From: Patescibacteria group bacterium
Lineage (GTDB): Bacteria > Patescibacteriota > Minisyncoccia > Phycocordibacterales > UBA918
DNA: 64,000 nt
Reading direction: 5' to 3'
NCBI GenBank assembly: GCA_038065355.1
Contig: JBBTRC010000005.1
Span: forward strand, 30,530-94,529
This document shows, in pieces, positions 8,890-63,099 of the stretch. The translations under genes were made by a program, and so were the position numbers. The notes under the pieces are model-generated. The model saw only the letters and a program-made list of their open reading frames with translations, made no database searches and was not told the DNA's origin. Within the stretch, counting starts at the first letter, position 1; each line of letters opens with the position of its first letter.

Positions 8890-8966
8890 AATAAATTTAT
8901 AATAAAAAACTAGCTTTACACATATTTTACACCGTTACTACACAGCCTATACACAAGTTATACACA

Positions 8967-10210: not shown

Positions 10211-11533
10211 TTAACTCTTGTAACTCACATCAACTCCCTGTGCGATTACTTTCTCGAAGTAGCGCGTGATATCGTCTGCCTCTTTCTCATCGAGGCCAAG
10301 ACCGCCCGCCCGTACCCCCTTCATCAATCGTTCATTAAATTCTTCATCCTCAATCACACCGGTCACCCGATCAGCAATCAGCTCGGTAAGATTTTCATCC
10401 TGCTCTTTGTTGAGCTTTACTCGGTGTTGTTGGATCAAGTGTTCGCGTAGTCGTTCTGACAATTTGTGCTGACTAAAAAAGATACCGTCGTTGTCTTTGC
10501 GCGCTCTGAATCGCTTGATATCAAGTGCATTCTCCATCATACGACCGGCGATGGTAGCCATTTTGCGCGCTTCTGCCTCCGGCACCTCGACGCCGCCTTT
10601 TTCTAAAGGCAAGACGAGACTTTTTATGTAAGCGTCGCGGTCGATTTTTCCTTTGATAAACATACCCGAAGCGCGCTCCAGCCGGATCAGCTGGTCGAAA
10701 GTGTAGTCTTGCGTCAAATAGTTGACTAAGCTCTTCACTCGGAGCGTGTCCACTGAGTCGTAGGGGTACAGTCGAGCCAGTTGTTCGAGCTCGGTGACGA
10801 TCGTCTCACCTTCCTGCACTGGCTTGATTTGCTTGCGCTGTGGGTTGACGACTTCACGAACGATGAGGCCGTCCTTGAGGTAGTAGACTCGGTGCGCATA
10901 GCTCAAGTGAGCGGCGTTGTGTGACACCATAATGATAGTACGGCGATCGAAGGTGTTGATTTCATCAATTTTATCCATCACTTGCTGTGTCGAAACAGAG
11001 TCAAGGTTGCCAGTTGGTTCGTCTGCGAGAAGAATCTTGGGGTCGTTTACCATCGAACGCGCCACCGACACGCGTTGTTGTTGACCGCCGGAGAGCATAG
11101 CGGGGATTTTATGCGAAACATGCCCCACGCCAAAACGATCGAGAAGCATCTGGGCGCGACGTTCTCTGGTAGTTTTGTCTACGTCGCAAAAAATCATCGG
11201 TAGCGCTACGTTGTCGAGCACCGAGAGCGATTGAATCAGGTTGAATGACTGAAAAATAATTCCCATCACGAAGCGCTGGAAATACACACGCTCGGCCGGC
11301 GGGTACGAATAGATATCGTCACCACGAATGAGGAGCGTGCCCTCGCCAGGCGGAAGTGAGCCTTGAATGGAATACATGAGGGTCGACTTGCCCGAGCCTG
11401 ATGCGCCGAAAAGAATGATGTACTCACCCTCAAAAATATCAGTGTTCACGCCCGTGAGCGCTTTAAATTCGTTCGACTTCCCCTTATTGTAGATAATCGA
11501 AAGATCCCGACAGACGATAAGCGGCTTGGCCAT
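10211..11533 (-). CDS. ABC transporter ATP-binding protein, MacB/LolD-like, with an unusual ~200-aa C-terminal extension of unknown function.
   Basis: Walker A GASGSGKST, ABC signature LSGGQQQRVSVARS and Walker B ILLADEPTGNLD, all within residues ~20-240. Residues ~240-440 carry no recognisable motif. Confidence 0.85.
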   Translation of the reverse strand: MAKPLIVCRDLSIIYNKGKSNEFKALTGVNTDIFEGEYIILFGASGSGKSTLMYSIQGSLPPGEGTLLIRGDDIYSYPPAERVYFQRFVMGIIFQSFNLIQSLSVLDNVALPMIFCDVDKTTRERRAQMLLDRFGVGHVSHKIPAMLSGGQQQRVSVARSMVNDPKILLADEPTGNLDSVSTQQVMDKIDEINTFDRRTIIMVSHNAAHLSYAHRVYYLKDGLIVREVVNPQRKQIKPVQEGETIVTELEQLARLYPYDSVDTLRVKSLVNYLTQDYTFDQLIRLERASGMFIKGKIDRDAYIKSLVLPLEKGGVEVPEAEARKMATIAGRMMENALDIKRFRARKDNDGIFFSQHKLSERLREHLIQQHRVKLNKEQDENLTELIADRVTGVIEDEEFNERLMKGVRAGGLGLDEKEADDITRYFEKVIAQGVDVSYKS

Positions 11534-11554
11534 TAAATGATGAAATGAGTGTAA

Positions 11555-11607
11555 CGATTATTCAGAATTTACTTCCCAATTCGCCGCCCCTAGGGCGAAT
11601 TGCTGGA
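11555..11607. promoter_or_regulatory. Copy 1 of a ~53-nt conserved non-coding element (CGATTATTCWGAATTTACKTCCCAAT - variable hairpin - ATTGCTGGA), in the leader region of the ABC operon.
   Basis: Near-identical flanks to the copy at 12518..12571. Hairpin AATTCGCC-GCCCCTAG-GGCGAATT. Confidence 0.35.
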
Positions 11608-11654
11608 GGCACTGCCACCGGGTCAATACTTCGTTACTTATAAGTACCCCGTGG

Positions 11655-11683
11655 TATTTATATTATGGCATCAATTGTTGCAA
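11655..11683 (-). promoter_or_regulatory. Possible sigma70-type promoter (TTGCAA-N17-TAAATA on the minus strand) for the ABC operon, overlapping an imperfect palindrome CAATTGTTGCAAATTG.
   Basis: Read by eye; sits between the lipoprotein terminator and the ABC ATPase start. Confidence 0.3.
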
Positions 11684-11702
11684 ATTGATCGACACCTCAT
11701 CC

Positions 11703-11743
11703 ACAGAAAAGGCCGCCGCACGACATACGTCGAGGCGGCGGCC
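11703..11743 (-). terminator. Rho-independent terminator downstream of the lipoprotein gene: GC stem ggccgccgc...gcggcggcc followed by a U-tract on the minus strand.
   Basis: Inverted repeat 11711..11719 / 11735..11743 with ttttctgt following on the minus strand, 50-90 nt after the stop at 11793. Confidence 0.6.
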
Positions 11744-11792
11744 AAAATTCAAAAGCAATAAAGATCAGTTTCAGTTCAACTCCTCGCAAGCT

Positions 11793-12323
11793 CTAAGGAC
11801 GAACGGCGAGAAGACGTTCGTTGGGCCCCCAGCCAAGCTCCCACCGGCCGAGGTGGAGCCCCCAGACGCCGTTCCAGCCACCTAATACAAGCACGTGACG
11901 CTCACCGTTGAAAGTAGCGATACTGCCGAAACAAGCCAGCCAGTACGGTGGGGGACCGAGATCAAACTGGTAACGTGCTTTGGCAATAGTCGCGCCGTAG
12001 GCGATGCATTCGGACGTGTTGGCGGGGCGCAGTCCGTAAGCTTTGATTTCCGCGACCGCATTCTCCGAAGAAATACCGCGGTTGAAGGCGACCGTTACCA
12101 GCTGGGCTTCGTAATCGGCCGTAACGGACTCGACTTTGAAGTTGGACTGGATGTCGGAATCGACAAAATCGTAGTGCCCCGCGTCAATGCGAGCCGCAAG
12201 CGATTGGTTTGCTTCGACGACAACTGGTCGGTCGGAACTGATTGTGGTCGGCTTATCCGCCGAATCACAACCCGTGAGCGACAACGCGAACATGGCGAAA
12301 GCCACCAGAAAACGACTTTTCAT
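11793..12323 (-). CDS. Lipoprotein of unknown function; signal peptide with lipobox LTGC. Start assigned to MKSRF (12323), not the upstream MYGL (12350).
   Basis: Lipobox LSLTGCDS. AAGGAGG Shine-Dalgarno 8 nt upstream of the ATG at 12321..12323. Consensus-like promoter upstream. Confidence 0.65.
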   Translation of the reverse strand: MKSRFLVAFAMFALSLTGCDSADKPTTISSDRPVVVEANQSLAARIDAGHYDFVDSDIQSNFKVESVTADYEAQLVTVAFNRGISSENAVAEIKAYGLRPANTSECIAYGATIAKARYQFDLGPPPYWLACFGSIATFNGERHVLVLGGWNGVWGLHLGRWELGWGPNERLLAVRP

Positions 12324-12382
12324 GTGAATGGCCCTCCTTAGGCCGTACAATTCTTGGCAGGATTGCCCTACTTCTATCTTTC

Positions 12383-12410
12383 ATTATACACAATCTGTAT
12401 AAAAAGTCAA
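12383..12410 (-). promoter_or_regulatory. Near-consensus sigma70-type promoter TTGACT-N16-TATAAT driving the lipoprotein gene.
   Basis: Minus-strand reading ttgactttttatacagattgtgtataat, about 55 nt upstream of the RBS/ATG. Confidence 0.55.
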
Positions 12411-12462
12411 GGTTTCGTGCCAGCCCTCTTTCTTCTTGTATTACCGTTGTACTACGAGCGAC

Positions 12463-12495
12463 TTACCCAGCGATGTTTTTTACCCAGCCGAAGGT
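12463..12495 (-). other. Remnant second copy of the 3' end of the FN3-protein gene. Encodes TFGWVKNIAG-stop, differing from the genuine end (12594..12626) only at synonymous positions.
   Basis: Minus-strand translation of 12463..12495 is T F G W V K N I A G *. The real gene ends ...ESTFGWVKNIAG*. Five nucleotide differences are all third-position and synonymous. The frame upstream of the remnant is closed by a stop. Confidence 0.45.
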
Positions 12496-12517
12496 TAAAT
12501 GAAGAAAGGAGCGGCAG

Positions 12518-12571
12518 CGATTATTCTGAATTTACGTCCCAATCTGCTTTTTCCTAAAGCAGATTGCTGGA
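12518..12571. promoter_or_regulatory. Copy 2 of the ~53-nt conserved element, immediately downstream of the FN3-protein stop codon. Hairpin core differs from copy 1 but still pairs (AATCTGCTTT-TTCCT-AAAGCAGATT).
   Basis: Flanks CGATTATTCTGAATTTACGTCCCAAT and ATTGCTGGA match copy 1. Stems covary. Confidence 0.35.
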
Positions 12572-12593
12572 CGAGAAAGCTCCGAGAGCAGAC

Positions 12594-14099
12594 TTATCCG
12601 GCAATGTTCTTAACCCAGCCGAAGGTACTCTCAAAGTTCTCGATAATGAGGTCGATGATGTTTTTTTCTTGAATCGGCGTGAAGAGTACGAAGTTTTCCG
12701 ATTGGACGTCGTTACCGGCTTCGTCGGTACAGGTGAGGTAGAACTGATAGACCGTCGCCGGTGCAAAATCTACCACCACCTCGACGTGCCGCGTGTTGTA
12801 CTCTAATTGCTCTTTCTCAATGGTAAACGGTTCGGTACCGCCGGCGACACCTTCTTGGTAGGTCATGAGACAGTTGGCTGCTTCGTCAGTGTCCCACTCA
12901 ACAATCGTTTGTATGCGCGACTCTCCGCCTGGAAAAAGAGTTGATTCGTTGGTGACGTTGGTGATGATAGGCGCGGCAATGTCGCGAACGGTAATAAATT
13001 GTATCGGTTGGCTACGGATACGGTCGCCGCTTGAATTTTCGGCCGTCACAAAGGCAACGTAGCGGGTGCCGAGCGTAAGATCAGCGAGGCGCATCTGATG
13101 CGTGGTGGCGAGCGTCGGACGTCCGACCGAGCTTTCAGCGCCGGTCGTTTGGTCTTGGTACTCAACGAGCGCCTTCGCCGGCACGGTGGTGTCCCAGGCA
13201 AGCGTGGCGGCGTTTTCTTCTACCTTTACCACTCGCAGGTTGCGGATTTCCGGAGCCGATGCTTTGGTTTTAAATGTGTAGTTGCGGCTCTCGCCGGTAA
13301 TGCCAAAACCGTCGGTCGATTTTACCTTGAAGCTATATTCGGTGAACGCATCGAGTCCGATCAGTTGTATTTCATGATCGGTAGTATCGGCACCAGTTGA
13401 GACTTGTGAAAACGCGTAGCTTGAACCGTCAAAGCCGTTGGTTGGTGAAAAAACTACTTCAGAACTGGCTTCACGGTCGGTTGTCCATTTGATGGTGGCG
13501 GTGGTAGTCTCCGGTAGCACCGTCGGCGGACCAACAATGGTCAAATCCTCAGTAATACCTTGCACAGCTTTGATGGTTTCGTTAATAATTTCCTGCAACT
13601 TTTGAGGGTCGGTAATTTCTTTTATTTGTTCGACGATCTCCTCGGTTTTAATTTCTTCCGTGGTGGCTGTTTGACTGCTCTGTCCTTGTCCTTCCGCTTG
13701 GCCGCTTCCCTCACCTTCTCCGGTTTGCGGGGTGCCTGATGTCTGCACTTTGTAGTCGGCCGAAATGCCTTGATTCCCTTCTTCGTCGGCCGACACGACA
13801 CGGAAGTAGTAGACGCGACCGGGCTCCAAAGCACCGAGCGTAATCGAGTGTGAGGTGCGTTCTGCGACCGGTATGCGCACGATGCCGTAGTCTGGTTGCA
13901 AGCCGTAGTTCACTGATGAGTCGGCATCTTCGTCGGTGTCCCAGGTAATCGTCACGCTGGTTTCGCTGACTTCTTTCACTTCCACGTTGGAAATTTCCGG
14001 AGCTTCTTGATCGCTCGACTGCGCCAAGGTCAAAAGCGGCAACAAAAATAAGAGCGTAACGAGGCGGACTGTGATTGATAAGGACATTTTTTTAATCAT
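12594..14099 (-). CDS. Secreted protein with two fibronectin type III-like domains and a Gly/Glu/Gln-rich linker. Last gene of the giant-protein transcription unit.
   Basis: 501-aa ORF. Signal peptide. FN3-like hallmarks (APEISNVEVKEVSETSVTITWDTDE..., YYFRVVSADEEGN, second module with TEYSFKVKSTDGFG). Start lies 9 nt after the giant ORF stop. Confidence 0.75.
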   Translation of the reverse strand: MIKKMSLSITVRLVTLLFLLPLLTLAQSSDQEAPEISNVEVKEVSETSVTITWDTDEDADSSVNYGLQPDYGIVRIPVAERTSHSITLGALEPGRVYYFRVVSADEEGNQGISADYKVQTSGTPQTGEGEGSGQAEGQGQSSQTATTEEIKTEEIVEQIKEITDPQKLQEIINETIKAVQGITEDLTIVGPPTVLPETTTATIKWTTDREASSEVVFSPTNGFDGSSYAFSQVSTGADTTDHEIQLIGLDAFTEYSFKVKSTDGFGITGESRNYTFKTKASAPEIRNLRVVKVEENAATLAWDTTVPAKALVEYQDQTTGAESSVGRPTLATTHQMRLADLTLGTRYVAFVTAENSSGDRIRSQPIQFITVRDIAAPIITNVTNESTLFPGGESRIQTIVEWDTDEAANCLMTYQEGVAGGTEPFTIEKEQLEYNTRHVEVVVDFAPATVYQFYLTCTDEAGNDVQSENFVLFTPIQEKNIIDLIIENFESTFGWVKNIAG

Positions 14100-61887: not shown

Positions 61888-61975
61888 TGGCGGAAGAGAC
61901 AGGATTTGAACCTGCGAAGGGTTGCCCCTTACACGCTTTCCAAGCGTGCGCCTTAAACCGCTCGGCCACTCTTCC
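61888..61975 (-). tRNA. tRNA-Ser (anticodon GGA), 88 nt, long variable arm, CCA encoded.
   Basis: Reverse complement folds as a cloverleaf: acceptor GGAAGAG/CTCTTCC, D-arm GCC...GGC, anticodon stem CACGC/GCGTG with loop TTGGAAA, 18-nt variable arm, T-arm GCAGG-TTCAAAT-CCTGT, then GCCA. Confidence 0.85.
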
Positions 61976-62904: not shown

Positions 62905-63099
62905 GAATGAGAAAACGAGCGCGTAGCGCGACTATTTCGAATAACCTAGAAATTAAAGAGAGTTTACTCGACTATAATTTCGGAAATACTCTTGTGGTGT
63001 TATACAGGCGCCTCGGCAGATTCGACCTACCGAGGGAGAATCTGCCGGCGGCGAGCTGTAGAGTTATTCTAACTTACTGCGTAGTAAAGTAAACTTTTA

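Follow-up and report, generated by a model that had tools for sequence, protein, structure and literature searches.

An undescribed family of two-hairpin interspersed repeats of about 80 nt in Patescibacteria and its possible spread as folded single-stranded DNA

Background

Several kinds of small hairpin repeat and hairpin site are described in bacteria, phages and plasmids. The gene of a RAYT, a transposase of the Y1 HUH type, is typically flanked by REP sequences. The RNA hairpins of the Correia elements and of ERIC sequences are processed or alter mRNA stability, and ERIC shows compensatory changes. REP and BIME elements and REPINs are mobilised by RAYT tyrosine transposases (PMC3337134). 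The sequences GCGNAGC and GCGNNAGC, termed "mini-hairpin DNA", are far more stable as DNA than as RNA and are known at the primase site of phage G4, at ssiA of RSF1010 (as CCGAAGG) and at the hairpin promoters of phage N4 (PMC13037366). The element examined here is an undescribed family of interspersed repeats of about 80 nucleotides (nt), each built of two hairpins, in Patescibacteria (Paceibacteria-type genomes). It was traced from copies in a surface-protein locus of a Patescibacteria group bacterium (GenBank assembly GCA_038065355.1, contig JBBTRC010000005.1, positions 30,530 to 94,529 of the forward strand). This stretch of 64,000 nt is called the window, and all coordinates without a locus label refer to it.

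The repeat family and its structure

The pattern common to three copies was scanned in metagenomes and recovered at least 119 loci, about two thirds of them true members, in a sample that is biased by the search pattern itself. A covariance model built from 17 seeds was searched in the window and 152 loci. With a cut-off of E<1e-7, it returned at least 73 matches, 62 of them distinct. Invariant loop sequences are kept across very diverged hosts. The neighbouring proteins are ordinary housekeeping proteins such as EF-P, RecR, GreA and DnaG, and one neighbour cluster formed at 90% identity includes a protein that NCBI names from a Candidatus Paceibacteria metagenome-assembled genome.

The family has no counterpart in the resources consulted. 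Rfam 15 at the gathering threshold gave only a tRNA in the window (61891-61975) and only tRNA in ten related loci. At E<=5, the region 11400-12700 gave two chance-level matches, both elsewhere in that region. Phage and plasmid collections gave no blastn match, and a pattern scan of viral contigs gave three matches, none with the hairpins. In the literature, no description of interspersed repeats in Patescibacteria was found, nor of an RNA motif that corresponds to this one.

Each unit consists of two abutting hairpins, designated P2' and P1' on the window plus strand. P1' has a base of 5 bp, a CU bulge of 2 nt and a freely variable stem of 10-11 bp. P2' begins with a base of 4-5 bp, followed by a 2x2 internal loop of tandem G·A and a 4-bp helix that contains a free dinucleotide pair. 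Beyond this helix lie a second, purine-rich internal loop and a tip hairpin of 2-4 bp.

The pairing is supported by covariation across the family. In alignment A3, which was fitted to the model and thereby favours the structure, 92.4% of cells are paired, compared with 73.0% in shuffles, and 22 of the 26 base pairs have changed on both sides. Covariation scores 0.471 in this alignment; shuffles score 0.143, none of 500 attains the observed value, and sliding the partners lowers it to 0.05-0.09. A separate count of the free dinucleotide pair, made on raw pattern matches and not on the alignment, found it complementary in 57 of 60 copies, in 8 combinations. The hairpin core, for which a preliminary description of the window had proposed compensatory covariation from two copies, thus covaries family-wide.

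Three variants in other loci depart from the standard unit. L108:1-120 is a tandem array of 47-nt units that contain the P2 module only, L115:233-333 is a family copy with an additional hairpin inside the tip loop, and L068:11-82 is a solo P1 hairpin adjoining a full copy.

Copies in the window

Copy 1 is a complete element of 77 nt at 11534..11610 on the plus strand (covariance-model match 86.6 bits, E=2e-16), and copy 2 a complete element of 79 nt at 12496..12574 on the plus strand (93.6 bits, E=6e-18). Because the covariance model was built in gene-sense orientation, it reports copy 1 as a minus-strand match. In copy 1, hairpin P2' spans 11534..11571 (+) and reads UAAAU / GA / UGAA / AUGA / GU-GUA-AC / GAUUA / UUCA / GA / AUUUA. 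The register of this helix is backed by the family covariation, and its UG/CA dinucleotide pair is one of the 8 complementary combinations. Hairpin P1' of copy 1 (11572..11608, +) carries the basal helix, the CU bulge and the variable stem CAAUUCGCC/GGCGAAUUG. In copy 2, P2' spans 12496..12534 (+), with an apical hairpin GC-GGCA-GC that fits the second mini-hairpin sequence, and P1' spans 12535..12573 (+), with the variable stem CAAUCUGCUUU/AAAGCAGAUUG. The flanks of the two copies are unrelated, and their variable stems come from different subfamilies, both of which are also found in other genomes.

The preliminary description had reported two stretches of about 53 nt. Both lie where it placed them, with exactly the sequence it described and with central stems that are perfect and differ in sequence. 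The homology runs about 21-25 nt further left on the plus strand, to 11534 and 12496, so that the real copies measure 77-79 nt. What had been taken for a separate conserved flank is one arm of the second, three-part hairpin, and the former "hairpin core" corresponds to P1'. The palindrome ATTC-W-GAAT noted in that flank is not itself conserved: the W belongs to the covarying dinucleotide, and the palindrome is an accidental by-product of the second helix.

Nor do the two copies make up the complete set in the window. A third copy, a composite divergent variant at 62905..63058 (+), gives a partial covariance-model match of 19.8 bits. Its P2 module (62905-62944) directly adjoins the start codon of an M48 peptidase gene (ATG, 62904), and a spacer, about 55 nt long, sets it apart from a long "type-B" hairpin domain (63000-63058) that resembles those in L019, L059 and L113. 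The GA/TC dinucleotides of copy 3 are complementary, and its plus-strand apical hairpin reads GCGC-GTA-GCGC.

Strand preference and the apical mini-hairpin

The two strands of the element do not fold equally well. With folding energies computed from RNA parameters, the plus-strand form is the more stable in 52 of 58 copies (mean -23.2 vs -20.5 kcal/mol, p=4e-9). For copy 1, the values are -23.6 kcal/mol (z -3.1) on the plus strand and -16.8 kcal/mol (z -1.2) on the minus strand; for copy 2, they are -28.2 (z -4.5) and -23.6 kcal/mol (z -3.0), respectively. Where the gene-sense strand is mispaired, the mismatch is usually A·C, seen on the complement as G·T or G·U; at one basal pair of that strand, 33 copies have A-T and 29 have A·C. 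The better-folding strand is therefore the window plus strand, antisense to the local genes. The preliminary description had chosen this strand correctly. It had also assigned both copies to transcripts of the surface-protein locus; their positions relative to the genes hold, and it is the best-folding strand that lies antisense to those transcripts.

The conserved loops are likewise best read on the plus strand. Of 62 copies, 57 have GA/GA as the 2x2 loop and 45 have a GNA triloop at the tip; the second loop is ANGA/GAYUA. The tip is exactly GCGNAGC or GCGNNAGC in 41 of the 62 distinct copies, with all four bases represented at N, and another 4 have GTGTAAC. In L059, the tip is CCGAAGG, identical to that of ssiA of RSF1010. 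Taken with the RNA-parameter energies, what is known of the mini-hairpin motif favours DNA over RNA as the folded form.

Insertion at otherwise conserved sites

Presence and absence of the element were compared at orthologous sites. A scan with one genome per species recovered 17 orthologous operons, of which 16, all in other species, lack the element. Most of them have the FN3 gene, a gap of about 60 nt and then the ABC gene. As the element is absent from most orthologous operons, it represents an insertion and not an ancestral part of the operon. L019 is the only orthologous operon with related elements; two lie after the FN3 gene and one abuts the permease ATG, at junctions that differ from those of the window.

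The ends of the element are sharp. Terminal inverted repeats are lacking, and the ends are formed by two unrelated hairpins. Flank information content is about zero (at most 0.3 bit) on both sides, with the exception of an A or T at the first base past one end. Flanks are common only to orthologous loci, and on that ground a longer shared element that includes the flanks was rejected. Flanking direct repeats occur in only 2 of 59 copies, and gene-end duplication, assessed at the protein level, in only 2 of about 55, so a long target-site duplication was also rejected as a general feature. Seven pairs of copies share at least 93% identity with the variable stem counted in, and nevertheless stand in unrelated flanks.

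Relative to neighbouring genes, the two orientations are about equally common: 24 cases share the strand of the downstream gene, 22 lie opposite to it, and among co-directional gene pairs 9 copies are in sense and 10 in antisense orientation. Five copies in both orientations occupy 14 kb of one ribosomal-protein operon stretch. Density is uneven, from 3 copies per 64 kb in the window and none in most orthologous loci to those 5 copies in 14 kb.

Junctions with start codons, stop codons and orphan gene ends

One end of the element has a distinct relationship with coding sequences. This end, which in gene-sense orientation reads …TCATTYA, abuts a genuine start codon with a spacing of 0-1 nt in 15 of 66 distinct copies. 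Within 400 nt, 24 copies have a co-oriented open reading frame (ORF) of 80 aa or longer, and these 15 are among them. The genes concerned belong to at least ten families, including ABC ATPase, permease, EF-P, RecR, topoisomerase I, Dus and M48 peptidase. Another group of copies, spaced 67-82 nt from the start codon, lies upstream of it and ahead of a whole promoter, and few copies fall between the two groups. An ATG that starts no gene is found at the abutting position in only 2 copies. Read in reverse, that same end is TAAATGA or TGAATGA, and it supplies or overlaps the stop codon of the incoming gene in about 8 copies. The opposite (P1) end never abuts coding sequence in such a manner.

Orphan gene ends were found beside some copies. 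A six-frame peptide search showed that the last 10 codons and stop of the FN3 gene (TFGWVKNIAG*) occur at 12463..12495 on the minus strand, directly abutting the P2 end of copy 2. The intact partner, the real FN3 3' end with the same peptide, is at 12594..12626 on the minus strand. The two differ at 5 positions, all of them synonymous third codon positions. An orphan FN3 end at L019:7140-7283 carries four synonymous differences, and at L100:2908-3080 the duplicated segment comprises the first 13 codons of pth, altered at five synonymous sites and one non-synonymous site. Further orphan gene ends occur in L119 (1-150) and L068. In these loci, the truncated fragment is always at the P2 end and the intact gene past the P1 end.

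Neutral drift after an exact duplication would, by a rough estimate, have left about 6 first- or second-position changes in the window and about 4 in L019, whereas none was seen. The purely synonymous differences in these two loci therefore make it more likely that the two copies of the gene end came from different lineages. Such orphan ends would fit a recombination with one homologous and one illegitimate end. On the upstream side of copy 1, a decayed FN3 end or ABC start was also considered and rejected, as local alignments were no better than shuffles.

The surface-protein and ABC-transporter operon

All genes near copies 1 and 2 are on the minus strand, with gene starts taken from simple ORF calls. 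In local gene order, a surface protein of 5531 aa comes first, followed by an FN3 protein of 501 aa (12594-14099, minus). The stop codon of the FN3 gene is at 12594-12596 (minus), and copy 2 is located 19 nt downstream of it, in line with the preliminary description, which had placed it shortly after this stop. A small lipoprotein gene (11793-12323, minus), with its own promoter and terminator, lies between copy 2 and the promoter next to copy 1. That promoter (11662-11705, minus) was recognised by comparison with 16 orthologous loci as the ancestral promoter of the ABC ATPase gene; it comprises a TGTGGATGAG box at 11696-11705 (minus) and an extended -10 element, TGCCATAAT, at 11662-11670 (minus). 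The ABC ATPase (440 aa, 10211-11533, minus) starts with an ATG at 11533-11531, downstream of copy 1. A MacB-type permease and a Tad-like protein, both on the minus strand, are encoded further downstream.

The relatives show how copy 1 altered this arrangement. In their ABC gene, a -10 box TGYCATAAT lies 6-8 nt from the ATG, a leaderless arrangement. In the window, copy 1 and about 50 nt more lie between the -10 element and the ATG, and the gene is intact. Copy 1 thus lies between the displaced ABC promoter and the start codon, as had been proposed, and it abuts the ATG without a spacer.

The operon itself offers several observations beyond the repeat. The order of giant surface protein, FN3 protein, ABC ATPase, MacB-type permease and Tad-like protein (7015-30704, minus) is syntenic in Paceibacteria-type genomes (L004-L020). 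The FN3 protein is 75-82% identical across many Patescibacteria, and the FN3, ABC and permease proteins of the operon are 67-88% identical, an unusually high conservation for surface-associated genes. Upstream of TGYCATAAT in the ABC ATPase gene, a TTGTGGATGAG/TTGGGGATAG box is conserved at a distance of 27-32 nt (window 11662-11705, minus; L004-L020) and may be a regulator site. The AT-rich spacer between the permease and Tad-like genes (window 8890-8966; L004-L020) contains the motifs TGTGTATAAC/TGTGTATAAG and GTACAAT/GTAAAAT in all orthologues, probably as a promoter or operator upstream of the Tad-like gene. Slightly positive GC skew on the window plus strand turns negative near 32-40 kb, with small values throughout, and the genes stay on the minus strand.

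Other inserts recur past the FN3 stop codon in related loci. At L016:4690-4900 and L020:7490-7680, a different structured insert of about 170 nt has a covarying closing helix and the conserved junctions TCGACACGCGTTCA, GCCGCTATGCTCG and CTGCGCAATGTCTC. Another is present at L008:7470-7570, L010:7590-7700, L011:7460-7560, L014:7500-7610 and L018:1170-1420, and occurs twice in L018. It consists of a hairpin that contains the stop codon, a GC-rich hairpin and a conserved CCGATGT...GG(A/T)GG tail. Neither insert has an Rfam match.

Proposed mobility and rival explanations

The reading we favour, with confidence about evenly divided for and against, is that the copies are non-autonomous mobile elements whose active form is folded single-stranded DNA. 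They would spread by copy-and-insert through a single-stranded DNA form. The window plus strand would fold into the abutting hairpins P2' and P1', and the invariant loops together with the bulge would be what a trans-acting enzyme recognises, perhaps a nickase or a transposase that works on hairpin DNA. The stems would covary because they need only pair. The window copies would accordingly represent insertions, copy 1 parting the ABC gene from its leaderless-type promoter and copy 2 following the FN3 gene. This reading draws on the family and its structure, the strand asymmetry, the sharp ends, the comparison of orthologous sites with and without the element and the near-identity of copies whose flanks are unrelated, all of which are established; the single-stranded intermediate and the kind of enzyme are presumed. 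The preliminary description had offered a structured RNA or a mobile hairpin repeat. The mobile repeat fits best, and the GCGNAGC tip points more to DNA than to the RNA alternative.

Several observations weigh against such mobility. ORF clustering showed only housekeeping genes within 3 kb of the copies, with transposases, integrases and reverse transcriptases all absent, and Pfam scans of 35 window ORFs found no mobility gene in the window. A phmmer search of 3302 ORFs (1.06 Mb of loci) with two transposase sequences as queries found no Y1/RAYT-like protein, a weak negative. Flank information content gives no conserved target motif of 4-5 nt beside the element. Upstream of efp, the element occupies the same site in lineages with strongly diverged EF-P proteins, a shared position that could reflect long-term retention rather than recent insertion. 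Since only two junction ATGs start no gene, a target-sequence preference does not explain the abutment of start codons, and its exactness hints at function or constraint at the level of RNA or expression. All the Watson-Crick helices, moreover, can form in RNA of either strand too, which makes an RNA role conceivable.

These points lead to the rival that deserves most attention, in which the element is a structured RNA module within mRNAs and mobility explains only its spread. In gene-sense orientation, the module would be a 5' leader that is cut at its 3' boundary by a host RNase or by itself, restoring an mRNA that starts exactly with AUG, the leaderless type that these genomes seem to use; in the opposite orientation, right after a stop codon, it would be a 3' stabiliser or processing hairpin. 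Such a module would suit the 15 of 66 distinct copies at genuine start codons of at least ten gene families, the clustering of spacings at 0-1 and 67-82 nt with few copies between, and the failure of sequence preference alone to account for abutment (2 non-gene ATGs). It would also suit the position of copy 1 between a leaderless-type promoter and the ATG of a still intact ABC gene, and the copies in essential operons, which remain unbroken with the element in either orientation. We nonetheless consider it rather unlikely, as orientation to the neighbouring genes is about even (24 vs 22; 9 vs 10), the gene-sense strand folds more weakly and sets pyrimidine-pyrimidine loops opposite the G·A motifs, no known ribozyme or RNase motif was detected, and the cut itself is purely conjectural. 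A single-stranded DNA signal used by the host, and not selfish, would keep the emphasis on DNA. Candidate roles are those of a site for priming or single-strand initiation, of a hairpin promoter, and of a guide or protector of incoming single-stranded DNA in natural transformation and recombination. The invariant loops in very diverged hosts accord with such a role, as does the GCGNAGC/GCGNNAGC tip, found also at phage G4, ssiA of RSF1010 and the phage N4 sites (PMC13037366), and orphan gene ends, found at the P2 end in four loci, would be expected if hairpin-ended donor strands integrated with one homologous and one illegitimate end. The low and uneven copy density, the near-identical copies in unrelated flanks, which resemble transposition, and the restriction of gene-end duplication to 2 of about 55 copies make a host signal improbable.

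A multi-copy small RNA gene with its own transcription from the window plus strand would agree with a discrete, sharp-ended unit whose structure is strongly conserved on one strand. It appears very improbable: neither side has a conserved promoter at a fixed distance (flank information is about zero), neither hairpin is followed by a U-tract, and in 15 copies an opposite-strand coding start immediately 5' of the plus form takes up the space that a promoter would need. Chance similarity or a simple local duplication had some appeal as long as only two obvious copies, within 1 kb, were in view, and practically nothing now speaks for it. The 26-nt flank consensus has exactly 2 matches in the 64-kb window, with 0.00 expected from 100 shuffles, and the copies have unrelated flanks, 62 distinct homologues and stems of different subfamilies. 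The preliminary description had itself raised the prospects of a family limited to two copies, without covariation in further homologues, and of a larger simple duplication. The covariance model and covariation test instead brought out a family of at least 73 matches with supported covariation, and the unrelated flanks dispose of the duplication.

Further candidates were tried and rejected. A promoter within the element, or at a fixed distance from it, was discarded since -10-like hexamers are not enriched by position, and the gene-sense AATAAT lies 23 nt from the ATG without a conserved TG or -35. A small plus-strand ORF was rejected because its frame differs between copies and the changes are non-synonymous. 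A boxA-like antitermination signal, GCTCATTT, is incompatible with random orientation, and a cis-regulatory leader or riboswitch fails for want of a consistent sense orientation (again 24 vs 22 and 9 vs 10). No T-run follows either hairpin on either strand and the copies lie inside operons, which rejects an intrinsic terminator. A classical miniature inverted-repeat transposable element would need terminal inverted repeats and a target duplication of fixed length, neither of which is present.

The readings are compatible with each other, and it may be that a mobile element persists only at sites where its transcript does no harm. We give little weight to one such combination, in which the very stable hairpins of a selfish single-stranded DNA module cap the 5' end of a strand taken up as foreign DNA and carry neighbouring gene ends between species, and in which the transcript of an element inserted between a leaderless promoter and its AUG is cut at the 3' boundary of the element to restore an AUG-start mRNA. 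Joining of the capped strand by homology on one side and an illegitimate join on the other would then account for the orphan gene ends in the window, L019, L100 and L119, and the cut would account for the exact abutment of start codons.

The family is of wider relevance for these organisms. Genomes of Patescibacteria are very small and streamlined, and a structured repeat of 80 nt in essential operons would show that mobile non-coding DNA is carried and tolerated there. The family can serve as a marker for recombination and gene flow between uncultivated lineages, and its invariant loops as bait for a protein partner. The exact start and stop junctions, together with the near-synonymous orphan ends, could reveal both the mode of insertion and how leaderless genes are expressed afterwards.

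Comparison with known systems

Integron attC sites share with the element a variable sequence with kept pairing, strand-specific folding, extrahelical bases and differing flanks. They form a single hairpin with RYYYAAC/GTTRRRY cores, in a promoterless cassette array served by an integrase. The element has two hairpins and no such cores, forms no array, and no integrase was found in the window. The G4 origin, ssiA of RSF1010 and the N4 early promoters present the same GCGNAGC/GCGNNAGC (and CCGAAGG) tip on a longer hairpin in single-stranded DNA (PMC13037366). These are single phage or plasmid sites, whereas the element is an interspersed chromosomal family.

Correia elements (CREE/NEMIS, Neisseria) and ERIC sequences (enterobacteria) are small non-autonomous repeats near genes, about 100-150 nt long and co-transcribed. 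Each is a single long imperfect palindrome made from terminal inverted repeats, with TA target duplications, and the element has neither. The ends of IS200/IS605 elements and of their miniature derivatives, PATEs, come closer, with no terminal inverted repeats, no target duplication and a hairpin at each end. Strand-specific asymmetry is common to both and fits a single-stranded "peel and paste" route. The IS200/IS605 hairpins are subterminal, whereas those of the element reach the very ends. In miniature elements derived from IS200/IS605, orientation follows the lagging-strand template; GC skew in the window is weak. A conserved tetra- or pentanucleotide target at one end, typical of IS200/IS605, is missing from the element by flank information content, and no TnpA or TnpB gene was found near its copies (3-kb ORF clustering; weak phmmer test).

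REP sequences and REPINs are, like the element, short extragenic non-coding hairpin repeats with many copies in both orientations, often right after stop codons. In both, one strand is presumed to be recognised as a hairpin by an enzyme acting in trans, and stems change by compensation. REPs are palindromes of 20-40 nt in inverted pairs with a GTAG/GGAG head, and reach hundreds of copies per genome. The element lacks this head, joins two unlike hairpins (38 and 40 nt) whose internal loops are conserved, and occurs as single copies, tens per genome at most. Its exact abutment of start codons is not a REP feature. The element fails the defining tests of both REP/REPIN and IS200/IS605-type hairpin elements, yet these are the systems it works most like, and it belongs with the small interspersed hairpin repeats.

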